Notes: generated by a model not told the origin, from the sequence alone. A stretch of DNA of 64,000 nt from a virus (IMGVR_UViG_3300006155_000013:1-64000), one strand, 5' to 3'. Shown: positions 28,585 to 40,386, counted from the first letter of the stretch. A program made the numbers and translations.

Positions 28585-28669
28585 GACGATCTCCTTTCTT
28601 TGCCTGTGGAGTTCCATGCCGAGTGGGGGGACTGCGGGAGCGCGGAGGCCCGCGTTTCCTTTGTAACAT

Positions 28670-28710
28670 AAAAATGCAGCTCCATTCGTCTTGAAAGGAG
28701 CTGCATTTTT
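28670..28710. terminator. Bidirectional terminator-like hairpin
   Basis: AAAAATGCAGCTCC-N13-GGAGCTGCATTTTT. Confidence 0.7.
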
Positions 28711-28712
28711 AT

Positions 28713-28771: not shown

Positions 28772-30166
28772 TTAAGGCCGGAAAAGGATCGTGATCTGCC
28801 GCGTGGGATGGACAAGTATCTTATCCAACGCCGACCGCCAAAAGGCCTGCTTATCGGTCCTTCCCAGTTCCTGGTATGCGCTCTGCCATCCTTGATAGAA
28901 GATCGACAGCAACCGGTCCGCAGTTGGCACGGCGGCGGGCACACTGCGCTCTTCTATCGTCAGGGCGTCCAGCTGCGCGGTTAATGCTTCATAATCCTTT
29001 CGGTACAGCTCCAAATCTATTATAGCATCAACATACAGATCTTTCAAGCGGGAAAGCCTCTTTTTTAACTTGGTACGCTCCTCCTGGAAATTCTTTGCCG
29101 GCCTCCCGGCGGACGCGGTCTGCTCCAGCTGATAGCCGAATTGCCGCAGCTCTGCATCCACGTTCTGCAAGAGATAATCCTCCACCACGGTCTCCCGGAT
29201 GTTGACATCGTTGGCGCAGTCCCCGTTATTATACCGCCCGCGGCAGTTGTAGGCGATGCCGCTGCGCCACTCTCCCGACTTGACACGGTAGTTATTTGTA
29301 TGAGACCCGTACCGCCGCCCGCACTCGGAGCAGAAGATGATCCCCGCAAAGAGATAGACCCGGTCTGCATCGGTCCTGCGCTCCGCACGGCGGCGGTTGG
29401 TGGAAATTTCGTCAAACTGCTCCTGCGTGATATACGCCGGGCACATCCCCTCCACGCCCTCGAAGCACCCGCAGTACGCCTCCTTGGTCAGCATGAGCCG
29501 GGACAGGTAGTAGGTGAAGAGCACCCCGCAGCGGGCTTCCGTGGCTCTACGGGCCTGTTCAATGGATCGGGTGGCCAGGAAGCGCTCAAAAAAGCAGGAC
29601 ACCGCCGCCTCCGTCTCCGGATCCTTGACCACCTTCTTTCCCTCGATCTTGTACCCCGTCGGGACCTTGCCGGTGCAGGGCTCCTGCCGCTCCTTTTTGG
29701 AGGCGAACACCGCCTTGATCCGCTCGCTGGTGCGGTCCGCCTCGTCCTGGGCCACGCTGAGCATGATGTTGATCTTCAGACGGCCCGAGGCGGTAGAGGT
29801 GTCGTAGTCCTCGTGGATGGTCTTCCAGTCTACGCGGTGGCGCTCCAGGATTTCCTGGACCTTGTAATATTCAGCTATGTTCCTAAACCAGCGGTCCAGC
29901 TTGGTGAAGACAACCAAGTCAATCAGGCCGGTCTCCACGTCCGAGAGCAGCCGCTGAAGCTCCGGACGCTTCGCCGCGCTTTTGCGTGCGGAGATACCGG
30001 CATCAATGTAGTGCCCGGCCACCTGGACCCCTGCCGTTTCCGCCCAGGCGTCCAGAGCCTCCCGCTGGGCCTCGATGGACAGGCCGTGGACCGCCTGCTC
30101 TTCTGTGCTGACGCGGATGTACAGCGCGGCTCGGGCGGCGGGAACGATGCCTTTTTCTGTTTTCAT
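28772..30166 (-). CDS. int: Large serine recombinase (integrase)
   Basis: YIRVST (catalytic Ser), KLDRWFR, recombinase domain, Zn ribbon CSECG...C..C, coiled coil. Confidence 0.96.
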   Translation of the reverse strand: MKTEKGIVPAARAALYIRVSTEEQAVHGLSIEAQREALDAWAETAGVQVAGHYIDAGISARKSAAKRPELQRLLSDVETGLIDLVVFTKLDRWFRNIAEYYKVQEILERHRVDWKTIHEDYDTSTASGRLKINIMLSVAQDEADRTSERIKAVFASKKERQEPCTGKVPTGYKIEGKKVVKDPETEAAVSCFFERFLATRSIEQARRATEARCGVLFTYYLSRLMLTKEAYCGCFEGVEGMCPAYITQEQFDEISTNRRRAERRTDADRVYLFAGIIFCSECGRRYGSHTNNYRVKSGEWRSGIAYNCRGRYNNGDCANDVNIRETVVEDYLLQNVDAELRQFGYQLEQTASAGRPAKNFQEERTKLKKRLSRLKDLYVDAIIDLELYRKDYEALTAQLDALTIEERSVPAAVPTADRLLSIFYQGWQSAYQELGRTDKQAFWRSALDKILVHPTRQITILFRP

Positions 30167-30168
30167 GG

Positions 30169-30280
30169 TTGCATTCCTCCTATAAAATGTGATAATATAG
30201 GAGAAGTGATAGGCGTTGCAATCTTATCACTTCTCCTTGAACCGTCTCCGGTGCTGGCGCACCGGGGACGGTTTTTTATT
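30169..30280 (+). ncRNA. Putative antisense sRNA cassette L1 (promoter plus two hairpins) upstream of the integrase
   Basis: TTGCAT(30169)-16-GATAAT with TG extension; hairpin 30199-30237; terminator hairpin with CTGGCG loop and T6. Confidence 0.6.
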
Positions 30281-30614
30281 GCGCTTTTTTCAGCTCGTTG
30301 ACGTCTGTACGCAGACGCTTGATAGAATCCTTCATCATGGGCACGTCGCCCGCTAGTTCATACATACGGTCGTTGTCGGCCTTTTTCTTCAACTGCTCCA
30401 TGATTGCTTCATGACCCTCGTAGAGCGCCTGGAGCCGGGGCAGGACCACGCCCTCCTGAGTGACGGCTACGCGGGTCAGGGTATCCTGCATCTCGTCCAG
30501 ACGCTCTCCTTGTTGGGCCTGGGTGGCTTTCAGCTCTGCGACATCGCCTTTCAGTCCTGCGACATCGCCTGTCAGCTTTGTCAGCATCTGCAAAATCTTC
30601 TCTTCGTTGTTCAT
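30276..30614 (-). CDS. Coiled-coil hypothetical protein in the lysogeny operon
   Basis: 112 aa heptad pattern; RBS AAAGGAG. Confidence 0.75.
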   Translation of the reverse strand: MNNEEKILQMLTKLTGDVAGLKGDVAELKATQAQQGERLDEMQDTLTRVAVTQEGVVLPRLQALYEGHEAIMEQLKKKADNDRMYELAGDVPMMKDSIKRLRTDVNELKKAQ

Positions 30615-30659
30615 GGTGTGCTCCTTTCTATGTACCCCGCCGGGGAGGCGGGGGCTTTT

Positions 30660-31100
30660 TTATGCCGGTTTTGTTTCGCTGGAGGCGGAGGAAGCTGATC
30701 CGCCTGCCGCCCGTCTCTTCTCTTCAAGGATTTCCCGGTAGTACTCCTCCGCTTCGGCGCGGGCCTCTGTCTCGTAGTCTGTGGGGACAGGGGTGTCCGT
30801 ACCAGCGGGCGGGGCGGGAGTGGTTGTTTCCGTTTTGGAAATAGCCGCCGGGGCGGGGGTGGCCGCCGGAGGAGTGGCAATGGAATTGATCAGTCGTTTT
30901 ACAGCGGAACGGTCGGCTTCACTCAAATGTAGATAACCCAAGATGATACGTTGGTCCAGCTCATCCAGGTCAAACTCTCCAACAATCTGGGCGATTTGCG
31001 ATTCCGGTACGCTACGGAACATCTCGCCCTTGCCGGTGCGAAGCCAAGTTTCGTTGACATTGAACTCCCGGCAGATGGAGAATATGACCGCCTCAGACAT
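30660..31100 (-). CDS. Repressor paralogue 3, lacking the N-terminal HTH helices
   Basis: Starts at the FNVNETWLRTGKGEMF segment shared with paralogues 1 and 2; C-terminal EARAEAEEYYREILEEK. Confidence 0.65.
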   Translation of the reverse strand: MSEAVIFSICREFNVNETWLRTGKGEMFRSVPESQIAQIVGEFDLDELDQRIILGYLHLSEADRSAVKRLINSIATPPAATPAPAAISKTETTTPAPPAGTDTPVPTDYETEARAEAEEYYREILEEKRRAAGGSASSASSETKPA

Positions 31101-31180
31101 AGGAGGCGCTAGAGGCTCGAAAACTTTAGCACCTCCTTGACCGTCTCCGGTGTTGGCAGCACCGGGGGCGGTTTTTTATT
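31101..31180 (+). ncRNA. Putative sRNA cassette L2, same two-hairpin architecture as L1
   Basis: AGGAG...CTCCTTGA-CCGTCTCCGGTG-TTGGCAG-CACCGGGGGCGG-TTTTTTATT; promoter not clear. Confidence 0.5.
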
Positions 31181-31266
31181 CTCCTGCGTCTATTTCGGTG
31201 GCTTCCCTAAGTACCGGGCCAAGTCAATGACCTTGCCCCAGTCCCTTGTCTGGCAGGGCGGGGGCT

Positions 31267-31932
31267 TTATTTTGCCTGCTTTGTTCCACCACTCCCAGTA
31301 TCGCTTTGTGAAGCTGAGGATTCTGCCGCCCGTATCTTTTCTTGAAGGATCTGTTGATAGAACTCATCCGCTTCAGCACGGGCTTCCTGTTCGGCCTTAG
31401 TCCGTGCCGGGGTGATCTCCTCTGATACCTCAGACCCTTGCTGCATTTTAGAAAAATACTCTTGTATTGCGGCCCTTTTTGCATCCTCTGCATATGCCAA
31501 CGCTTCCTCTATTGAAGGGTATCCCATTTCTGTTTTCAGAAGTTCCTCCGGCTTTTTGTCGCCAACCGATTTCATCAGCACACGGTAAAAGAACGCCCGG
31601 ATGGCTTTCCTGTTGTTGGGTGTCAAATGAAGGTACTCATCCACCAGCGCCTCATCAAAGGGATCCAAATAGAAATCGACCGCAAGCTCCTCCAAAGCCG
31701 TGTTGGGGGCTTTAGTGAACATTTCCCCCTTCCCAGTGCGGAGCCAGGTTTCGTTGACGTTGAATTCTTTACAAATTAAGGAAATTACTGAATTGCTTGG
31801 ACCGTTCCGGTCAATTTCATAACTTGCAACAGTATTTCGTTTCATACCAATACGATCAGCAAATCCTTGCTGTGTAAGGTCTAGTGCCCTGCGTAACTTT
31901 TTGATTCGCTGGCTGATTGTTTCGATCTGCAT
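31267..31932 (-). CDS. XRE-family repressor paralogue 2
   Basis: MQIETISQRIKKLRRALDLTQQGFADRIG; RBS AAGGAGG. Confidence 0.88.
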   Translation of the reverse strand: MQIETISQRIKKLRRALDLTQQGFADRIGMKRNTVASYEIDRNGPSNSVISLICKEFNVNETWLRTGKGEMFTKAPNTALEELAVDFYLDPFDEALVDEYLHLTPNNRKAIRAFFYRVLMKSVGDKKPEELLKTEMGYPSIEEALAYAEDAKRAAIQEYFSKMQQGSEVSEEITPARTKAEQEARAEADEFYQQILQEKIRAAESSASQSDTGSGGTKQAK

Positions 31933-31948
31933 TTTATCCTCCTTAAAA

Positions 31949-32320
31949 TTATTTTGCCAAAGCAAGAGCGAAGCGCGCCGCCGCCTGCAACTCTTCCTCG
32001 CTCATAGCGGCCAAAGCCGAGAGGAAGCGGTACCGGATGTTCCCCGGTTCATCGCACAGTGCCAAGTCTACAAAGGCGGAGATTTCATCGTTTGCGGTCC
32101 TCTTGATGAACATTTCCCCCTTCCCAGTGCGGAGCCAGGTTTCACTTATTTTAAATTCACGGCAGACACCTAGCAGTAGTTGGTCAGAAGTATTTCGTTT
32201 TCCAGATTCTATAAGTGCAATAGTGTTTTGCTTTACACCAATACGCTCAGCAAATGCCTGCTGAGTAAGGTCCAAAGCCTTACGCAGTTTTTTTATGCGT
32301 AAATTGATGGTTTCGTTCAA
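31949..32320 (-). CDS. XRE-family repressor paralogue 1 (CI-like), TTG start
   Basis: (M)NETINLRIKKLRKALDLTQQAFAERIG; first gene behind the leftward promoter. The track's 33019 start is an over-extension. Confidence 0.88.
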   Translation of the reverse strand: MNETINLRIKKLRKALDLTQQAFAERIGVKQNTIALIESGKRNTSDQLLLGVCREFKISETWLRTGKGEMFIKRTANDEISAFVDLALCDEPGNIRYRFLSALAAMSEEELQAAARFALALAK

Positions 32321-32350
32321 ATTGCAATACCCCCCCTTCTGGATAAATTG

Positions 32351-32437
32351 ACAATAGCACAAAAGCGTTGGTTTGTCAACAAAAAGATTGAATCCGACAA
32401 AAAGCCTCTTGACAAAAGACGGATTCAAGCATATAAT
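32351..32437. promoter_or_regulatory. Primary genetic switch: divergent sigma70 promoters and operators
   Basis: Plus TTGACA(32409)-17-TATAAT(32432); minus TTGACA(32379)-17-TGcTATTGT; inverted repeat TTGAATCCG/CGGATTCAA. Confidence 0.85.
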
Positions 32438-32471
32438 AGTCGGAGAAACAACAAAAGGAGGTGAACACAAA

Positions 32472-32645
32472 ATGCGGAAACCGAATACGGAAGCCATTTC
32501 CAAGGAGGATATGGACTTTATCCGTTTGATGGCGGCAATGCCCACAGAGGCAAAAATTCTGACAAGGGGCCTGATCCTGGGCCTTGGCCTTTCGGAAAAG
32601 ATCCAGAAGGGAGGCAATCCGGAAACGGCACGGCCCAGCGCGTGA
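32472..32645 (+). CDS. Small protein in the Cro position, no evident HTH
   Basis: RBS AAAGGAGGT; MRKPNTEAISKEDMDFIRLMAAMP. Confidence 0.75.
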   Translation: MRKPNTEAISKEDMDFIRLMAAMPTEAKILTRGLILGLGLSEKIQKGGNPETARPSA

Positions 32646-32689
32646 AACCACCCCATGTGGACCGGGCGTAGGAAGGGAGGTGAAAGAAA

Positions 32690-32881
32690 ATGGCGAATCA
32701 TCTGGACTATCTGGAAGAGACGGGAATGACGGCAAGCGAGTGGGAAAAAGCCACAAACGCCGCCGCCCAGGATCTGGTGGATGTCCTTCGCAAAAGAGGC
32801 TGCACCTACCATGACGCAAAAGCGGCCCTCAGCAAGGCCGACACCATTTTGGAGCGGGCCATCCTGAAGGCCAAGGTTTGA
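32690..32881 (+). CDS. Small hypothetical protein
   Basis: RBS GGGAGGT; 63 aa. Confidence 0.7.
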   Translation: MANHLDYLEETGMTASEWEKATNAAAQDLVDVLRKRGCTYHDAKAALSKADTILERAILKAKV

Positions 32882-32906
32882 TCTATAAAAATAAGGAGGA
32901 CACCGA

Positions 32907-33464
32907 ATGAACGAACTGAAAATCTTCGAGCATCCCAAATTTGGGAGAATCCGCACCATCATCGAGGATGGTAAGACCCTGTTCTGCGGTAAGGACGCCG
33001 CGTTGGCGTTGGGGTACAAGAATCACATCAAGGCATTGGCAGACCATTGCAAGGGGGTAACGAAACGCGACCTCCCCACCAACGGTGGAGCCCAGACTAT
33101 GAATTTCATCCCCGAAGGCGACCTCTGCCGCCTGGCCGCAAAATCCGAGCTGCCCGGTGCAAGCGAGTTCGAGAGCTGGATTTTCGATGAAGTGATTCCC
33201 GCTATCCTGCGGACTGGTACCTATACGGTGCCCGGAGCGGCCCCAAAGTTGCTTTACCTTCCCGAAGGCGTTTCTTTGAACGGACTGGCAAAGCTGCTGA
33301 CCATCACGCGACGGATGATGCTGGACATGGGCAAAGGCCCGAACGAAATCGGTTCCGTAGCAAAGGGACTGTTTGACAGCTGCGGTGTGCCCCTTGCCCC
33401 AGCGTTCTACAACGAGCTCCCCGGACAGACCAGTCTTTTCGACTATCCCGCTCTGGAGAGATAA
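32907..33464 (+). CDS. Antirepressor, Bro-N domain
   Basis: FEHPKFGRIRT...LFCGKD.A.ALGY...FIPEGDL.RL...A..FESWIFDEVIPAI. Confidence 0.9.
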   Translation: MNELKIFEHPKFGRIRTIIEDGKTLFCGKDAALALGYKNHIKALADHCKGVTKRDLPTNGGAQTMNFIPEGDLCRLAAKSELPGASEFESWIFDEVIPAILRTGTYTVPGAAPKLLYLPEGVSLNGLAKLLTITRRMMLDMGKGPNEIGSVAKGLFDSCGVPLAPAFYNELPGQTSLFDYPALER

Positions 33465-33571
33465 AAAGCGCCCCGCCGGGTGCGCCAACATCCGACAGGG
33501 CAAGCGAGACCAAAACATACGAAAAATCAGCCTCTACCCTCCATTATACCGGAGGCCGGGGCGGAAAGCAA
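33461..33571 (-). ncRNA. Putative antisense sRNA cassette R1
   Basis: Minus TTGCTT(33571-66)-17-TATAAT(33548-43); ~76-nt RNA ending in a hairpin with UUGGCG loop and U5. Confidence 0.65.
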
Positions 33572-33576
33572 GGAGG
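33498..33576 (+). repeat. 79-bp perfect direct repeat (copy 2 at 34842-34920)
   Basis: Identical by direct comparison. Confidence 0.95.
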
Positions 33577-33581
33577 GCCCC

Positions 33582-33794
33582 ATGCGGGAGAACCTGAAAG
33601 CCGCCCGCAAGGCGGCGGGACTGACACAGCAGGCTATGGCGGAGAAACTATGTGTAGGACTACGGCATTACAAAAAAATCGAGAGCGGAGAAACACTTGG
33701 TAGTATCGATTTGTGGGACAAACTGGAGGATATTACTGGGATTCATCAGCGGATTTTGCGAGAAATTCGTCTCGGCAAAGAAGATAGTCTGTAG
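33582..33794 (+). CDS. Cro-like XRE HTH protein
   Basis: MRENLKAARKAAGLTQQAMAEKL; RBS AAGGAGG. Confidence 0.85.
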   Translation: MRENLKAARKAAGLTQQAMAEKLCVGLRHYKKIESGETLGSIDLWDKLEDITGIHQRILREIRLGKEDSL

Positions 33795-33960
33795 AAACGT
33801 TCAGGATATCTGCTATAAGTACAAGTCCCTCAAGCGTTGGGTTTGCGTGTCCGCTTTCGTATTTTCGGTAGTTTCGCAACCCGGTTTGAAGCGCATCCGC
33901 CATTTGTTGAGCCGTAATCCCCCGTTCTTTTCGCGTTTTATTCAATCTTTCACCTAGCAT
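33733..33960 (-). CDS. XRE HTH repressor of the secondary switch
   Basis: GERLNKTRKERGITAQQMADAL...P.LE.L..IADILNVSTDYLL; RBS AGGAGG. Confidence 0.88.
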   Translation of the reverse strand: MLGERLNKTRKERGITAQQMADALQTGLRNYRKYESGHANPTLEGLVLIADILNVSTDYLLCRDEFLAKSADESQ

Positions 33961-33981
33961 AAAATTTTCCTCCTAAAAGTC

Positions 33982-34041
33982 TTGACAGTGCCATAATAAT
34001 ACACTATAATGAAGCTGTCAGTAAGTGCCATAGTATGGCAC
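33982..34041. promoter_or_regulatory. Secondary switch: overlapping divergent promoters with two 17-bp operators
   Basis: Plus TTGACA(33982)-17-TATAAT(34005); minus CTGACA-17-TATTAT; GTGCCA-N5-TGGCAC at 34025-41 and a degenerate copy at 33988-34004. Confidence 0.85.
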
Positions 34042-34063
34042 CATCAGAAAGGAGGACAAGCAA

Positions 34064-34273
34064 ATGGTAATCACCTACGAACGGCTACGGGAACTCCGGT
34101 TCCTGGGCGTAACACCGGAGACCGAGTGCTGTGCGAACTGCGAGCACTTCCACCAGCACTACAACAAAGACGGGGGCCTGATTTTCGCAGGGCACTGCTG
34201 CTATCCGCGCATGAAGCCCAGGAAAGGCTACGACCTCTGCAAGTATTTCAAGGGCAAGGAGGACACCGAATGA
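34064..34273 (+). CDS. Small Cys/His-rich protein (CANCEHF...GHC...C)
   Basis: RBS AAAGGAGG; first gene after the secondary promoter. Confidence 0.75.
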   Translation: MVITYERLRELRFLGVTPETECCANCEHFHQHYNKDGGLIFAGHCCYPRMKPRKGYDLCKYFKGKEDTE

Positions 34274-34806
34274 AAGTACAAGACTACCACGGCAAGAGCG
34301 TCATCGACAGCCGCGAGGTGGCGGAGATGGTGGAGAAGCAGCACAAGAACCTTCTCGCCGATATCCGCGGGTACCTCAAAATCATGGAGAAGGCTAACGG
34401 GCTGAATTTTCAGCCGGTCGATTTCTTCATTCCCAGTACCTACCAGGACAACAAAGGCGAGGACCGTCCCTGCTACCTCATCACGAAGAAGGGCTGCGAC
34501 ATGATCGCCAACAAGCTGACCGGCGAGAAGGGCGTGCTGTTCACCGCCGCCTATGTGACGGCCTTCGAGGACATGAAGCGGGCGTTGGACGCCCCCAACC
34601 GCGCCCCGGAGGTCTCCCCCAGCGGGCTCGCAAAGCTCATCACCATCACCCGTCGGATCATGCTGGACATGGGCGGCACCCCGGTCCAGGTCGGCACGAT
34701 GGCCCGGGATGTATTCAAGGCGTACAACTTCCCGGTTCCCATTGCGCTGGACAAGCAGTTGGAGGGACAGATCAGCTTCTTCGATCCGCCTCTGCTGGGC
34801 AACTAA
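34270..34806 (+). CDS. rha: Antirepressor, Rha-family N-terminal domain
   Basis: IDSREVAEMVEKQHKNLLADIR...STY.D.KGE.RPCYLITKKGCD..ANKLTG.KG..FTA.Y. Confidence 0.9.
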   Translation: MKVQDYHGKSVIDSREVAEMVEKQHKNLLADIRGYLKIMEKANGLNFQPVDFFIPSTYQDNKGEDRPCYLITKKGCDMIANKLTGEKGVLFTAAYVTAFEDMKRALDAPNRAPEVSPSGLAKLITITRRIMLDMGGTPVQVGTMARDVFKAYNFPVPIALDKQLEGQISFFDPPLLGN

Positions 34807-34915
34807 AAAAGCGCCCCTGCGGGTGCTGCCAACACTCGCAGGGGCAAGCGAGACCAAAACATACGAAAAATCAGCCTCTACCCTCCATTATACCGGAGGC
34901 CGGGGCGGAAAGCAA
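34803..34915 (-). ncRNA. Putative antisense sRNA cassette R2
   Basis: Minus TTGCTT(34915-10)-17-TATAAT(34892-87); terminator hairpin with UUGGCAG loop and U6. Confidence 0.65.
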
Positions 34916-34925
34916 GGAGGAAATT

Positions 34926-35141
34926 ATGAATTTTCACATCACGCTCAGCCCGGAGCAGTTCGAGTTTCTGGACGGACTGCTGGGGGATGTGGTCCAGCTT
35001 TATGAGCACCAGGCCGCCGCTCTGGCCTGCCTGGACGGCGAGGCGGCCCGGGACCTGGCCCAGGAGCGGCTGGATGCGTCCCAGAATGCGGCGGAGATCG
35101 CGTGGCTGCTGGCTAACACCAAGCCTGTGGAAGGAGCGTAG
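34926..35141 (+). CDS. Small acidic hypothetical protein
   Basis: RBS AAGGAGG; 71 aa. Confidence 0.7.
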   Translation: MNFHITLSPEQFEFLDGLLGDVVQLYEHQAAALACLDGEAARDLAQERLDASQNAAEIAWLLANTKPVEGA

Positions 35142-35145
35142 AGAG

Positions 35146-35352
35146 ATGGGACGTAGGGAAAAGCCGGTCACGTTCAAGATCGTTGTCCCGCCTAGCGCGG
35201 CTAGGGCCGAACAAATGAGCCGCGACCTGCTGGAGATGGTGATGAAAAAGGAAGGGATCACGGCCAAGATCACCCCCGTGAAGCGCGGGCCCGGAGACCC
35301 GATTCTGACCATCGTCCCGCCGGAGACGGCGGGGAAATCTGCGAGTGCGTGA
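35146..35352 (+). CDS. Small hypothetical protein
   Basis: MGRREKPVTFKIVVPP; fits the operon tiling. Confidence 0.6.
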   Translation: MGRREKPVTFKIVVPPSAARAEQMSRDLLEMVMKKEGITAKITPVKRGPGDPILTIVPPETAGKSASA

Positions 35353-35368
35353 GAGGAGGGACACGACC

Positions 35369-35554
35369 GTGAAGCTTTACAAATGCGAGACTATCGCCCA
35401 GTTCAAAATCGGCATGTGGCTGGTGGAGCAGGGCATCGAGCGGGAGGACATCCTGACGGCAGAGCTCTTGGGGCCCAACGAGGTCAAGATCACAAATCCA
35501 GCCGGACAGTATATGCACATCCGGTGGATGGGAGACCATGCGGAGATTGTCTGA
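35369..35554 (+). CDS. Small hypothetical protein
   Basis: RBS GAGGAGG, GTG start (MKLYKCET). Confidence 0.65.
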   Translation: MKLYKCETIAQFKIGMWLVEQGIEREDILTAELLGPNEVKITNPAGQYMHIRWMGDHAEIV

Positions 35555-35567
35555 GGAGGTGATCAGG

Positions 35568-35711
35568 ATGTACATCGTCAAGTAGTGCGACTGCGAGGGG
35601 AACCTCTATGAGCGGAAGTTCCGCACTATCCGCGCCGCCCGTGCAGAGGCGGAAGAGCTCCGAAAAAAGTACGATGGCGTGGAGATCGAGAAGGTGCCGG
35701 ACCGGCGGTAG
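35568..35711 (+). pseudogene. Small ORF interrupted by TAG at codon 6
   Basis: RBS GAGGAGGT; MYIVK*CDCEGNLYERKFRTIRAARAEAEELRKKY. Confidence 0.55.
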
Positions 35712-35714
35712 GCA

Positions 35715-35822
35715 CAAAGTTCCCCGGCAGGTACCCTAACACCTGCCGGGGGATGGAGGAAGCCGGGATTATCAGGTCCAGCCTCTTACTATGATTTTAG
35801 CACGGTTCGGGGCAGATTGCAA
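35715..35822 (-). ncRNA. Putative antisense sRNA cassette R3
   Basis: Minus TTGCAA(35822-17)-17-TGcTAAAAT(35799-94); 11-bp hairpin 35722-35752. Confidence 0.55.
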
Positions 35823-35832
35823 GGAGGAACGA

Positions 35833-36435
35833 ATGGAAGCAGAAAAATATTTGGTGCGCACACGCGCCCTCCGCTCCCAGAGGGATGTGTGGAAACAGGC
35901 GGCGGTGGGGGTGCTGGCCCTGTCCATCACGGGCAACATCGGGCTGTACGGCATCGCCTGTTCCCGGGAGGCGAGACACCGGGAGGAGACGGCACAGCTT
36001 CGCACAGAGCTCCGGCACGTGGAGGCGGTCCGGGACGACGCCCTGGAGGAGCTGGGCCGCATGGCCAACGACTACGCCCGGGAGAAGCTGGCCAGGCAGG
36101 AGCAGGCGGAGGCGTATGAGGCCGTGGGGGCCTGGGAGTACGTCGGAGAGTGTACCATCACCGCCTACTGCCCCTGCGCGGAGTGCTGCGGGCGCTGGGC
36201 GGACGGCGTGACGGCCTCCGGTCTTCCCGCAACGCCCGGCGTCGTCGCCGTGGACCCAGAAGTGATCCCGCTGGGGAGTACGGCCGTCATCGACGGTCAG
36301 CGCTACCTCGCCGCGGACACCGGGAGCGGCGTGGAGGGCCTGCATATCGACATCTGCATGGGCTCTCATGAGGAGACCGTGGCGCACGGGGTCCGGACGG
36401 CGGACGTGTGGGTGGCAAAGGAGGCGCAGCCATGA
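35833..36435 (+). CDS. Membrane-anchored 3D-domain (cell-wall hydrolase-like) protein
   Basis: TM helix, coiled coil, then TAY...TASG...VAVDP..IPLGS...ADTG..IDI. Confidence 0.88.
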   Translation: MEAEKYLVRTRALRSQRDVWKQAAVGVLALSITGNIGLYGIACSREARHREETAQLRTELRHVEAVRDDALEELGRMANDYAREKLARQEQAEAYEAVGAWEYVGECTITAYCPCAECCGRWADGVTASGLPATPGVVAVDPEVIPLGSTAVIDGQRYLAADTGSGVEGLHIDICMGSHEETVAHGVRTADVWVAKEAQP

Positions 36436-36680
36436 GCGGGATTTTCCAGCAGCTGAAGGAGGAGGCCCTCTACGCGCAGCGGTCCCTGTCCACAGAGCTG
36501 CTGTACCAGACCTACGGCGCGGCCAAGATGGCCCGGCATCTGGGGTTCATCACGAAGGAATCCTTTCTGGAGCTCAGCAGCATGACGGTCCGGTTCATGA
36601 ACACAGACCTCGCTTATCTCCGTCAGAAACAGATCGAATTTGCCGCGCTGCGCGGCATGAAGGAGGGCGCCCATGAGTGA
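36432..36680 (+). CDS. Hypothetical protein
   Basis: ATGA overlap; LLYQTYG...L. Confidence 0.7.
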   Translation: MSGIFQQLKEEALYAQRSLSTELLYQTYGAAKMARHLGFITKESFLELSSMTVRFMNTDLAYLRQKQIEFAALRGMKEGAHE

Positions 36681-37365
36681 GAGCAAAGCGGAGCGGGCCA
36701 GGGCGCTCCGGTATAAGCGGGGAGCGCTGGCCTCCATGGGCTTCGAGTTCCTTCGCGCTGATCTGGACGAAATCCGCGAGGCCTGCGACACCATCCACTG
36801 GTGGACCGACCAGGATGACGAGACCCTGCTAAACGCCTTGGACGGGGACGACGAAGACGTCTGGGAGTTCAAAATGGCCTTCGCCCACCTGGAGGCCAGG
36901 GCGGACGAGTTGCTTGAGACCATTTATGAGCTGTGCCGGTATGAGGATGATTTCGGTCAGGTCTACGATGACTGCACCGTGGCCCTCATCGGAAACCGCT
37001 ACCGCACCATCGGCTATGACGGCTTCGAGGAGGACTACTACGCCCTCACCGGCTATGAGCAGGAATTGGCCCAGACCGAATCGGGGAAGCGTCTCATGCG
37101 TAGGACCAAAGCGGAGATCCTATCCATCATCGGGCAGTGCTTTGGCATCCTTATCGCTTTCCTGGACCTGCGTCAGCAGTACGACTACCTCAAGGCCACC
37201 TTCGACATCCTGCGGGATGAGAACACCTCCATGCTCCAGCAGGTCAAGGAGATCGATGCCGCTTACAAGGCGATGGTCACGGCGGACTGGTCCGCACGGT
37301 CTGAGGCGGAAAAGAAGTTTGACCGCCTGCTGTCTGCCTTGCCGGACCGTGTGTGGGTGGAGTGA
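36673..37365 (+). CDS. Conserved acidic phage protein of unknown function
   Basis: 230 aa, coupled to its neighbours. Confidence 0.75.
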   Translation: MSESKAERARALRYKRGALASMGFEFLRADLDEIREACDTIHWWTDQDDETLLNALDGDDEDVWEFKMAFAHLEARADELLETIYELCRYEDDFGQVYDDCTVALIGNRYRTIGYDGFEEDYYALTGYEQELAQTESGKRLMRRTKAEILSIIGQCFGILIAFLDLRQQYDYLKATFDILRDENTSMLQQVKEIDAAYKAMVTADWSARSEAEKKFDRLLSALPDRVWVE

Positions 37366-37482
37366 GCGGGACCATGACCATCGGCCTGATCTCCGTGGAC
37401 GGCCAACCGGGTCAACAAAAAAAGTACGTTCAAAGCCTGTACCTGGGAGGAATTTCGGAGCGGGAAGAGGGAGGTGATTCAG

Positions 37483-38782
37483 GTGGAGCATTTTGGAGAC
37501 ATCAGGAGGCTGAACGGGTACGAGCTGCCAGCGATCGATGTGGTCATTGGTGGTTCACCGTGTTAGCCAGGACCTGTCTGTGGCGGGAAAACGGGCGGGC
37601 CTCGCCGGGGAACGGAGCGGCCTGTTCATGGAACAGATCAGGATCATCAAGGAAATGAGGGACGCGGATGCAGGCAGAGGACGGACAGGTCTCTTTGTTC
37701 GACCACGATTCATGGTGTGGGAGCAGGTCCCAGGAGCGTTCAGCTCCAAAAAAGGCGAGGACTTCCGGGCCGTCCTTGAGGAGACGGTCCGGATCGCAGA
37801 ACCGGACGCCCCCGACGTTCCACTACCTCCAAAAGGAAAGTGGCCAATGGCTGACTGCTGGATGGGGGACGGCTGGTCCGTCGCCTACAGAGTTCTCGAC
37901 GCACAATTTTGGGGAGTGCCCCAGCGCCGCCGCAGAATCGCGCTTGTCGCAGATTTTGGAGGACACGCCGCACCAGAAATACTATTTGTCCGCCAAGGCG
38001 TGTGCGGGGATCCTCCGGCGGGCGGAGCGGCGGGGGAAGAAACTGCCGCCGGAACTGGAGGCGGCGCTTATCCGGCAGTCGCGAGAAGCCTGACGGCCCG
38101 TCATGACGGGAGCCCGTGCGTGGACCGGGGACCAAATATTGTTGTGGCCGGATTCAAGCCCCATTCCGGAGTGTCCGCAGGGGGCATAGGGTATCAGGAG
38201 GAGACGGCACCTACCATCGACACGGGGAAACCAATGGCGGTCTACGATGCCCGGGGAAACGGAGACGGGAAAACTGCATGTACACTGACCGGGGACCACC
38301 AGAGCCGGGTGACGGACTACACGGCCATCGTCATGCGTCAGCACAACTTCGGCGAGTACCGAGAGGGTGTTGGGACGCTAACTGCGCACAACGGAACACG
38401 CCATGCGTCGGAGGCACTTGTAGTGGGCAGGAATGTCCGCCGTCTTACTCCCCTGGAATGTGAACGCCTCTAGGGCTACCCGGACGGATGGACCGATATC
38501 GGGCCGTGGACGGACAGCGCCGGGAAGCTCCACAGGGAGAGCAGTGACAGTGCCCGCTATACGGCGCTGGGAAACTCCATCGCCCTGCCGCCATGGAAAT
38601 GGGTGCTCAAACGACTGTGCGCCTGTTACGAGCGGAACGCTACCATGGCGAGCCTCTTTGACGGGATCGGCGGCTTCCCGCTGATCTGGGAGCGGCTGAA
38701 CGGACCGGGTTCCTGCCTGTGGACAAGCGAGATCGGCGAGTTCCCCGCCGCCGTGACAAAGAAAAGATTTTGCGGAAAGTGA
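37483..38782 (+). pseudogene. Circularly permuted C5-cytosine DNA methyltransferase, disrupted by a 4-bp insertion and a TAG
   Basis: GDI..., GGSPC/QDLS (motif IV), WEQVPG (VI), QRRRR (VIII), RRLTPLECERL*GYP (IX), LGNS (X), then FDGIGG (I) at the C-terminus. Confidence 0.88.
37668..38093 (+). CDS. Nested out-of-frame ORF resembling the beta polypeptide of two-chain C5 methyltransferases
   Basis: SRLSQILE...KYYLS.KAC.GILRRAERRGK.LP; RBS-like AAGGA upstream. Confidence 0.55.
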   Translation: MQAEDGQVSLFDHDSWCGSRSQERSAPKKARTSGPSLRRRSGSQNRTPPTFHYLQKESGQWLTAGWGTAGPSPTEFSTHNFGECPSAAAESRLSQILEDTPHQKYYLSAKACAGILRRAERRGKKLPPELEAALIRQSREA

Positions 38783-38793
38783 GGTGACAGCCG

Positions 38794-39048
38794 TTGAACA
38801 AAACAAAAATGCGGCGCTGCAAAAATTTCAACTGCGATAAAATGCGCGGTCATTACTGCTGCACCGACTGCGACCAAAGGAAGTCGTGCGCCAACCCGTG
38901 CCTGAACCACCCCACCCGGTGCGGTCTGTCTGAGGCCCCGCCGGTGAGGCCGGGACCGGACGGTAAGGGAGTGGCAAAAGCAGGCCCGCCAAGTAAACAC
39001 ACACCTGGCGGGCCAAAGGAAAAAAATAATAGGACACCTGCATTATAG
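38794..39048 (+). CDS. Cys-rich hypothetical protein
   Basis: CKNFNCD...CCTDC...C.NPCLNHP.RCG; RBS GAGGT. Confidence 0.6.
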   Translation: MNKTKMRRCKNFNCDKMRGHYCCTDCDQRKSCANPCLNHPTRCGLSEAPPVRPGPDGKGVAKAGPPSKHTPGGPKEKNNRTPAL

Positions 39049-39070
39049 CAGGCCGGAAAGGAAAATGCAA
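38975..39070 (-). ncRNA. Putative antisense sRNA cassette R4
   Basis: Minus TTGCAT(39070-65)-17-TGcTATAAT(39047-42); hairpin 38983-39014 followed by UGCUUUUG. Confidence 0.55.
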
Positions 39071-40386
39071 TGTCGTCAGTAAAAATCACCCAATTTGAGG
39101 CGGAGAACGTCAAGCGGATCAAGGCGCTGACGCTGACGCCGGCGGAAAACGGCCTCACGGTCATTGGGGGCCGCAACAACCAGGGCAAAACAAGCAGTCT
39201 GGACGCCATCGTCTGGGCCCTGGGCGGGGAGCGCTACAGGCCCTCCCAGGCGGTCCGGGAGGGCTCGGTGATCCCGCCCAGGATGCGCATGGAGCTGAGC
39301 AACGGCGTCGTGGTGGAGCGCTCCGGGAAAAACAGCGACCTGAAGGTCACCGACACCCGGGGCCGCAGGGCCGGACAGACCCTGCTCAACTCCTTTGTGG
39401 AGGAGTTGGCCCTCAATATGCCCAAATTCATGCAGTCCACCAGCAGGGAAAAGGCCGATACCCTCCTGCGCATCATCGGTCTGGAGGACCAGGTGCGCGC
39501 GCTGGAGCGGGAGGAAAAAGAGCTCTATGACCGGCGGCGGGCCGTGGGTCAGCTCTACGAGCAGAAAGCCAAGTATGCCGAGGAGCTCCCCTCGTGGCCC
39601 GACGCCCCCTCGGAGCCCGTCTCCGCCCTGGAGCTCATCCACCGTCAGCAGGACATCCTCGCCCGCAACGGCGAGAACCAGCGCAAGCGGGACCGGGCCA
39701 AAAAGCTGGACGAGCAGTGCGCCATCGCAAAGGAGCAGATGGAGGACCTGGAGAAGCGCCTCAGAGAGGCGCGGGAGAAGTACCTGAGCCTTTGCGCCGA
39801 CTGTGAGACCGCCCGGCGGGACGCCCTGGACCTCCAGGACGAATCTACCGAGGAGCTGGAGCAGAGCCTCCGGGACGTCGAGGCGGTCAACGTCAAAGTC
39901 CGCACCAACCAGGACAAGGCCCGGGCCGTGGCGGAGGCGAAGCAGTACAGCGACCAGTACGCCGCCCTCACCGAGGAGCTGGAGACGGTGCGGCAGAAGA
40001 AGCTGGACCTCCTCAATGGCGCGGACCTGCCCCTGCCGGGGCTCTCGGTGGAGGACGGGGAGCTCACCTACCAGGGCCGCCCCTGGGACTGCATGAGCGG
40101 GAGCGACCAGCTCAAGGTCTCCACCGCCATCGTCCGGGCGCTGAAGCCTGAGTGCGGCTTCGTGCTCCTGGACAAGCTGGAGCAGATGGACTTGCAGACC
40201 CTCCGGGAGTTCTCCGCCTGGATGGAGGCCGAAGGGTTGCAGGGCATCGCCACCCGGGTCAGCACCGGGGAGGAGTGCAGTATCATCATTGAGGACGGGT
40301 GCGCAACTGCGCCCGCAGGGGACGGCCTCTGCGCCGTCCCGCCCCCCGCGCCCGTCCAGCCCGCCTGGCAGAAAGGAGTATTCTAA
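39070..40386 (+). CDS. SMC/SbcC-like AAA ATPase
   Basis: N-terminal Walker A GRNNQGKTS, long coiled coil, MSGS signature, VLLDKLE Walker B. Confidence 0.9.
   Translation: MSSVKITQFEAENVKRIKALTLTPAENGLTVIGGRNNQGKTSSLDAIVWALGGERYRPSQAVREGSVIPPRMRMELSNGVVVERSGKNSDLKVTDTRGRRAGQTLLNSFVEELALNMPKFMQSTSREKADTLLRIIGLEDQVRALEREEKELYDRRRAVGQLYEQKAKYAEELPSWPDAPSEPVSALELIHRQQDILARNGENQRKRDRAKKLDEQCAIAKEQMEDLEKRLREAREKYLSLCADCETARRDALDLQDESTEELEQSLRDVEAVNVKVRTNQDKARAVAEAKQYSDQYAALTEELETVRQKKLDLLNGADLPLPGLSVEDGELTYQGRPWDCMSGSDQLKVSTAIVRALKPECGFVLLDKLEQMDLQTLREFSAWMEAEGLQGIATRVSTGEECSIIIEDGCATAPAGDGLCAVPPPAPVQPAWQKGVF

Follow-up and report, generated by a model that had tools for sequence, protein, structure and literature searches.

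The stretch of DNA analysed here, referred to as the window, comprises 64,000 nucleotides (nt) of a virus (IMGVR_UViG_3300006155_000013:1-64000) and is part of a 74.5-kb IMG/VR virus record. Six small intergenic cassettes, named E1 to E6, are scattered over its lysogeny and early operons (Table 1). The lysogeny operon reads leftward and contains a serine integrase gene, two small genes and two XRE repressor genes; the early operon reads rightward from a consensus promoter. The nearest relatives of the integrase were found in metagenome-assembled genomes of mouse-gut Oscillospiraceae, and the host of the prophage is a gut bacterium of this family. Each cassette lies on the strand opposite to the local genes and takes up the interval between two of these genes, from the stop codon of the first to the start of the second, to which it is fully complementary; transcription of the operon would run across the gap. 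On its own strand a cassette consists of a -35 box of the TTGnnn kind, a spacer of 17-18 nt, a -10 box, a short 5' hairpin (H2), a strong GC-rich terminator hairpin (H1) and a run of T. The -35 box sits over the ribosome-binding site (RBS) or the start codon of the next gene; in the case of the integrase, both the start codon and the RBS lie under the -35 box and spacer of E1. The elements are very probably real promoter-terminator mini-genes, and the RNAs predicted from them probably act in cis as antisense regulators of the flanking operon. An earlier note on this DNA had described six intergenic elements with a common layout, all antisense to the local operon, and all six were confirmed at the coordinates given there and in that orientation. 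Its core reading, that short cis-antisense RNA genes form a family dispersed over the lysogeny and early operons, is supported by the in-silico tests and by the distant copies described below.

The -10 box is perfect in E3, E4 and E6 and reads TAAAAT in E5 and TAATAT in E1; the spacer ends in TGn in E1 and E5. A near-consensus promoter with its -35 box on the next RBS or start had been claimed for five of the six elements, and it was recovered in E1 and in E3 to E6. At the family -10 position of E2 (31096-31101) the sequence is the degenerate GACATA, so E2 is without a family-type promoter. A promoter scan returned a possible substitute, TTGACA-18-GAGAAT at 31054-31083, within the neighbouring coding sequence. 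In E1 to E4 the upstream gene's stop codon is overlapped by the T run or borders on it, and in E5 the T run follows a stop codon by 8 nt, which agrees with the hairpin having been placed at the 3' end of the upstream gene; this part of the description did not carry over to E6, where the last plausible open reading frame listed ends about 190 nt ahead of the hairpin and no upstream gene is callable. Short RNAs of the anticipated size (60-85 nt) that end in a hairpin and U-tract are predicted for E1, E3 and E6, but the tail of E5 has three T only and forms a weak U-tract. E6 is the outlier of the set and is without H2. Among the strong intergenic terminators of the phage, five are those of antisense cassettes and two or three are ordinary sense or bidirectional ones. 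Two further hairpins with T-tracts are present on the plus strand in gaps of the leftward operon, without a usable promoter upstream, and could be terminator-only cassette relics or back-up stops for antisense readthrough.

Table 1. Cassettes, genes and other features of the region, in window coordinates.
Feature	Position	Strand	Remarks
E1	30169-30280	plus	covariance model 97.7 bits; predicted RNA ~76 nt, antisense to integrase leader; -35 30169-30174; 18-nt spacer; TGn and -10 30190-30198 (-10 30193-30198); H2 30199-30237; H1 30239-30274; six-T tract 30275-30280
E2	31081-31181	plus	covariance model 84.8 bits; H2 31102-31137; H1 31139-31173; six-T tract 31174-31179
E3	33461-33574	minus	covariance model 87.4 bits; predicted RNA ~74 nt; -35 33566-33571; 17-nt spacer; -10 33543-33548; H2 33506-33534; H1 ~33469-33501; five-T tract 33463-33467
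E4	34804-34918	minus	covariance model 91.9 bits; duplicate of E3; -35 34910-34915; -10 34887-34892; H2 34850-34878; H1 34811-34845; six-T tract 34805-34810
E5	35712-35825	minus	covariance model 73.7 bits; conserved in five related phages; -35 35817-35822; TGn and -10 35794-35802; H2 35759-35785; H1 35720-35753
E6	38974-39073	minus	covariance model 24.9 bits, E ~1e-3, non-seed; conserved in relatives; predicted RNA ~61 nt; -35 39065-39070, overlapping ATG at 39070; -10 39042-39047; H1 38983-39014 with TGCTTTTG tail
Hairpin and T-tract	30635-30660	plus	hairpin 30635-30653
Hairpin and T-tract	31243-31277	plus	hairpin 31243-31264
Palindrome	28668-28712		20+20 nt, near-perfect, T-runs on both sides
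Large serine integrase	28772-30166	minus	Pfam Resolvase and Zn_ribbon_recom
Small gene	30276-30614	minus	leftward lysogeny operon
Repressor-like paralogue	30660-31100	minus	no helix-turn-helix match; gene start inside E2
XRE repressor gene	31267-31932	minus	leftward lysogeny operon
XRE repressor gene	31949-32320	minus	leftward lysogeny operon
Consensus promoter	32409-32437	plus	start of early operon
Bro-N antirepressor	32907-33464	plus	rightward early operon
Small XRE-type helix-turn-helix gene	33582-33794	plus	Pfam HTH_3; start 7 nt past end of E3
Convergent helix-turn-helix gene	33733-33960	minus	inside rightward early operon
Second consensus promoter	33982-34010	plus	early operon
Rha-family protein	up to 34806	plus	early operon; followed by several small genes
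71-aa gene	34926-35141	plus	function not assigned; downstream of E4
3D-domain protein gene	35833-36435	plus	Pfam 3D; downstream of E5
DNA methylase fragment			early operon, after 3D gene
AAA_23 (SbcC/RecF-like) ATPase gene	39070-40386	plus	Pfam AAA_23; downstream of E6

A covariance model was built from ten seed cassettes, with E1 to E5 among the seeds and E6 left out. Applied to the 64-kb window, it recovered exactly the six elements, with seed scores of 74-98 bits for E1 to E5, and no other full-length copy. The model finds more copies in distant phages. In a sample of 151 genomes from the host family it matches 29, with as many as seven matches in a single genome; in a Clostridia-wide sample, also of 151, it matches 6, two of which are also in the family sample. 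The earlier note had proposed a survey of gut phages with such a model; that cassettes are widespread in Oscillospiraceae prophages had escaped it. In other prophages two to four copies cluster within a few kilobases and typically differ in strand, and distant integrases (46-48% identity) have a cassette of the same build and different sequence just upstream of their start. The scoring of strand and geometry below refers to 46 cassette copies, and the promoter profile to 37 distinct non-seed matches. With Rfam, no family attained its gathering score in a scan of the window, a permissive scan (E up to 5) of positions 29500-40000 gave no relevant match, and neither did a scan of 20 diverse cassette loci; the matches returned were tRNAs or at chance level. 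Megablast of the region against the phage collection gave no match. The literature search, which included a 2025 review of phage small RNAs, turned up neither an antisense RNA family of integrase leaders nor cassettes of this kind in phages of Clostridia; the earlier note, too, knew of no description in Clostridia phages. The cassettes very likely represent a candidate RNA family that is undescribed and absent from Rfam, of a kind of regulator that is already known.

The information profile of the non-seed matches reads TTG(A/C)nn, a 17-nt spacer of low information, T-R-T-G-n and T-A-n-A-A-T, and its conserved columns spell what is, as far as sequence tells, a Firmicute sigma-A promoter. The TRTG extension upstream of the -10 box is a Gram-positive hallmark, as in the sigma-A promoters of Bacillus subtilis. 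The 17 nt between the boxes are almost free, save for one C that belongs to the complement of the RBS. Several matches carry TTGACA or TTGACT together with TATAAT and are nearer to the sigma-A consensus than the seeds; a drift in this direction is not what a bias of the model would give. The -35 box keeps its distance to the -10 box but not to the neighbouring start codon (offsets -22 to +4), so coding or RBS constraints do not explain it. The promoter score was higher on the cassette strand than on the sense strand in 38 of the 46 copies, and a sense-strand promoter as the main signal was rejected on this count. A repressor operator in the DNA around the -10 box was also considered and set aside, as the flanking inverted repeats differ between the cassettes of one phage.

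Both hairpins are conserved as structures. H1 is 95.7% paired, with compensatory changes at 11 of 15 pairs, and H2 shows such changes at 12 of 14 pairs, counted on a hand-given structure and an imperfect alignment. None of 500 shuffles reached the observed covariation, and shifted controls were far lower. H2 is 61% paired, which is an underestimate since MAFFT puts copies of differing stem length out of register; on the same alignment the RNAalifold consensus fold did not return H2. Many pairs of H1 are U-G, which the opposite strand would turn into C-A mismatches. In 39/46 copies H1 has its more stable fold on the cassette strand (mean difference 4.7 kcal/mol), and so has the H2 region, likewise in 39/46 (mean difference 2.8 kcal/mol), for which the model contains no pairs. 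In E3 and E4, H2 folds on the cassette strand only (E3, -8.1 vs 0.0 kcal/mol). With a GC-rich hairpin and T-tract 60-90 nt after the promoter, a short transcript with an intrinsic terminator is predicted. The top of the H1 stem and its loop (GGUG, U-rich loop, CACC) are conserved in sequence in distant copies beyond what pairing needs (alignments A2 and A5); this apex could be a kissing loop, a protein site or a product of model bias. The predicted transcripts of about 75 nt have no conserved start codon or reading frame, and a small protein or type I toxin was rejected. A transposable miniature element was likewise dismissed: neither terminal repeats nor target duplications are present, and the cassette edges coincide with gene boundaries.

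The position of the cassettes relative to starts and stops on the opposite strand recurs in unrelated prophages. A gene start with a Shine-Dalgarno sequence lies on the opposite strand within a few nt of the -35 box in 31 of the 46 copies, and an opposite-strand stop codon is found at the T-tract in 33. Orientation against the flanking genes, seen in all six cassettes of the window, extends to 31/46 copies of the family. Among 27 downstream genes, 13 encode integrases (8 tyrosine and 5 serine) and four encode helix-turn-helix (HTH) proteins; a second set of copies yields more tyrosine integrases. The leader of the integrase gene is the commonest seat of the family in Oscillospiraceae prophages. 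As the two integrase families are unrelated, the association points to a function tied to integrase expression and not to shared descent of the neighbouring gene. Transfer RNA genes are present just beyond several cassette-linked integrases, as expected at prophage ends. At loci L040-L043 and L050 the distance from the integrase 3' end to the tRNA gene is no more than about 100-150 nt, which is typical of tRNA-targeting prophages or integrative elements.

The six elements are not independent inventions. E3 and E4 have a perfect direct repeat of 79 nt in common (33498-33576 and 34842-34920), with similarity that continues into the 3' ends of the upstream genes, and are a recent duplication; the H1 hairpins of E1 and E2 are 92% alike. 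The claim of a multi-node system stands as regards the spread over both operons, but the six nodes reduce to about four independent ones. The comparison with relatives drew on six IMG/VR loci that carry a related 3D gene and eleven that carry a related integrase. The cassettes are 90-100% identical in close relatives even where the surrounding genes differ, and the breakpoints of homology fall on cassette edges (30242/30282, 33576/34806 and 34798). In one relative, 2.4 kb of unrelated DNA stands between two H1 copies, exactly at 30242/30282. The 79-nt repeats bound a module of 1344 bp with two HTH genes, a consensus promoter and the Rha gene; in relatives L011-L013 this module is missing and Bro-N is joined straight to the counterpart of gene 34926 via a single cassette, suggesting that the module was gained or lost when cassettes recombined. 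The cassettes also flag mosaic breakpoints in comparisons of related phages. H1-type hairpins that share the apical sequence are also found alone, without promoter or H2 (L012:4381-4434, L017:1467-1507, L009:3226-3279 and L034:1501-1555). At least one of them seems to end a gene on the same strand, which indicates that the H1 module also serves as an ordinary terminator.

Taken as a mini-gene, each cassette would be a complete small non-coding gene read against the surrounding operon into an RNA of about 60-90 nt. Transcription would start from a constitutive-looking sigma-A promoter whose -35 box lies on the RBS or start codon of the next gene, and the transcript would fold into H2 and end at H1 and its U-tract by the stop codon of the previous gene. 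Because the cassette fills the intercistronic gap, the RNA would be perfectly complementary to the intercistronic leader of the sense mRNA. It would lower expression of the downstream cistron, that is the integrase, an HTH protein, the genes that follow the antirepressors, the 3D protein and the recombination ATPase. Two routes may be envisaged. Pairing of the RNA would expose an anti-Shine-Dalgarno stretch that sequesters the RBS, and may also create a substrate for RNase III; in addition or instead, RNA polymerase sitting at the antisense promoter, or firing from it, would hinder readthrough, with interference between facing polymerases. Cassettes common to related phages would also provide homologous crossover points for the exchange of modules.

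The translational route was explored by computation, with start sites assumed 7 nt after the -10 box. A short inverted repeat flanks the -10 box, and its complementarity is higher within than between cassettes (permutation p = 0.0002). Through this repeat, a CCUCC-like stretch of the sense leader is paired with the RBS in integrase-type copies; in the free sense leader the stretch is predicted to be held in the sense version of H2. When the segment bound by the antisense RNA was masked, the predicted mean accessibility of the RBS fell from 0.58 to 0.27, with drops in 18/26 leaders. Values near zero were obtained for most integrases, and E1 went from 0.48 to 0.06 and E4 from 0.44 to 0.09. These predictions suggest a translation switch driven by the antisense RNA in many integrase leaders. 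P22 sas RNA, as cited in PMC12197685, offers a precedent in principle for such a switch.

Several points weigh against an antisense function. The predicted RNAs have their 5' ends about 25-40 nt upstream of the next RBS and so would stop short of it, unlike P22 sar or IS10 RNA-OUT; the masking computation did not predict the accessibility switch for E3 or E5, and where it is predicted it depends on the assumed start sites. The inverted repeat of H2 begins 1-2 nt after the -10 box in integrase-type copies, so that the antisense transcript may not include its outer pairs. Copies of the integrase or E1 type may also contain a sense (integrase) promoter, a weaker one, with its -35 box in the H2 loop. 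Base composition could account for part of the strand asymmetry, which is supporting evidence and not proof. There is some circularity, as the matches were chosen by a model that includes the promoter columns. Within the window itself, the missing family-type promoter of E2, the weak U-tract of E5 and the missing H2 of E6 depart from the common build.

Other functions may be assigned to the same elements. If the promoter-terminator pairs were real and the RNA a by-product, the cassettes would be transcriptional brakes or insulators, with polymerase at the antisense promoter blocking or colliding with readthrough and the terminator confining antisense transcription. The -35 box on the RBS or start of the next gene, a predicted RNA that does not cover the RBS, the terminator-only hairpins of the leftward operon and the H1-only copies of relatives are all in keeping with such a brake. 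We nevertheless consider it unlikely, as a pure roadblock would have no need of H2, which is conserved as a structure, covaries and favours the cassette strand, and the length of the RNA is held to a narrow range. The breakpoints at cassette edges and the loss of the 1344-bp module in L011-L013 would suit elements that are mainly recombination linkers, a form of intergenic punctuation kept for module swaps, with a minor role for any regulatory RNA; the PeSLs of T4-type phages are the precedent (PMC4122927). Recombination requires identity alone, and a sigma-A promoter with a divergent spacer, covarying hairpins and a fixed position at integrase starts in unrelated prophages go beyond that. A role mainly as linkers is very unlikely, and a contribution to module exchange is compatible with antisense regulation and no alternative to it.

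The sense mRNA might also be the working molecule, its hairpins sequestering the RBS, stabilising the upstream cistron or serving in processing, with the antisense promoter incidental. The inverted repeat around the -10 box would be RNA only in the sense transcript, where the excess of complementarity within cassettes and the pairing of the anti-Shine-Dalgarno stretch with the RBS in integrase-type copies would find a use, and in E2 the hairpin locks the only strong RBS of gene 30660-31100, about 30 nt upstream of its ATG. A working sense mRNA cannot account for the information profile of the promoter, and it does not sit well with the preference of H1 and H2 for the cassette strand, with the lack of a sense fold for H2 of E3 and E4, or with a T-tract that follows H1 on the cassette strand only. 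It is regarded as highly improbable. A wider role is conceivable on top of cis-antisense regulation, namely an RNA-based network of immunity and cross-talk in which the RNAs of a resident prophage silence the integrase and several early-operon nodes of incoming relatives and the cassettes double as crossover points. The near-identity of cassettes in relatives with differing flanks means that constitutive RNAs could give superinfection exclusion. This extension is doubtful at present; if true, one element would couple regulation, immunity and genome evolution.

The remaining features of the region concern its gene map (Table 1). The three tandem repressor-like paralogues at 30660-32320 (minus strand) have a 72-nt block in common. 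The two consensus promoters of the early operon are both perfect (TTGACA-17-TATAAT) and each faces a divergent HTH gene; on this arrangement the phage seems to carry two immunity-like switches. The palindrome that closely follows the integrase gene may be a terminator for both directions or a candidate attachment site at the prophage end. The segment 37518-38693, with the C-5 cytosine methylase fragment, is absent in relatives L012 and L013.

What is known of short antisense RNAs as gates of phage decisions comes from a handful of proteobacterial model phages; in gut Clostridia, the temperate phages are little known and hard to handle at the bench. The candidate family reported here is well defined, can be modelled, occurs in roughly one fifth of the Oscillospiraceae genomes that were sampled and is tied to two unrelated integrase families, and some phages multiply the cassette across the early operon. 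If the RNAs are made, they would give a general and testable handle on how these prophages quiet their integrase and early genes, and the sharp definition of module boundaries would be explained as well. For the annotation of prophage ends and regulatory regions in gut metagenomes, the covariance model is ready for use.

Phage P22 makes sar, a short RNA that acts antisense in cis, has a sigma-70-type promoter and a terminator of its own, and is encoded between cistrons of an antirepressor-containing regulatory operon (primary papers cited in PMC12197685). The cassettes of the window are like it in being short, putatively cis-antisense, equipped with promoter and terminator and placed in an antirepressor operon. 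P22 sar is a single gene that covers the ant RBS, whereas the cassettes occur six times, stand downstream of Bro-N and Rha antirepressor genes and stop short of the next RBS. The Rfam covariance models of P22 sar and P1/P7 c4, the check for c4-type families suggested in the earlier note, gave no match in the window or in the 20 diverse cassette loci; the likeness to sar and c4 drawn there is one of working principle and does not extend to family membership. The OOP RNA of phage lambda and its BTP1 counterpart are prophage antisense RNAs of about 77 nt with their own promoter and terminator that modulate a lysis-lysogeny gene (PMC7067206). OOP is single-copy and overlaps the 3' end of cII, whereas the cassettes face leaders, and there is no match in sequence or structure between them. 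Small RNAs next to int were described in Streptococcus pyogenes prophages by RNA-seq and Northern blot, for example Spy_sRNA779816 of 89 nt with a predicted promoter and terminator (PMC4829319). As with the cassettes, these lie between int and the next gene of a Firmicute prophage, a likeness by description only. They were not described as a repeated cassette or an integrase-linked family.

The PeSLs have the orientation of the genes around them, whose sense transcription they punctuate. Each combines a sigma-70-type promoter with a stem-loop; these composites recur in intergenic positions at junctions of insertion, deletion or replacement, and mediate modular shuffling (PMC4122927, PMC2839356). 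The cassettes resemble them as repeated promoter and stem-loop composites at mosaic junctions, with six copies in the window, but are antisense and form closed mini-genes, and the hosts and phages are unrelated. A further parallel is found outside phages. In IS10 RNA-OUT and in the countertranscripts of the Gram-positive plasmids pT181 and pIP501, a constitutive outward promoter in or at the 5' end of the target drives a stem-loop antisense RNA of about 70-150 nt that refolds the leader. The start codon lies within the region covered by RNA-OUT, and plasmid countertranscripts work through an induced attenuator, whereas a switch that sequesters the RBS is predicted for the cassettes, and for many integrase leaders only. 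The cassettes, which belong to no curated family, appear by analogy to follow the principle of P22 sar, lambda OOP, IS10 RNA-OUT and the plasmid countertranscripts.

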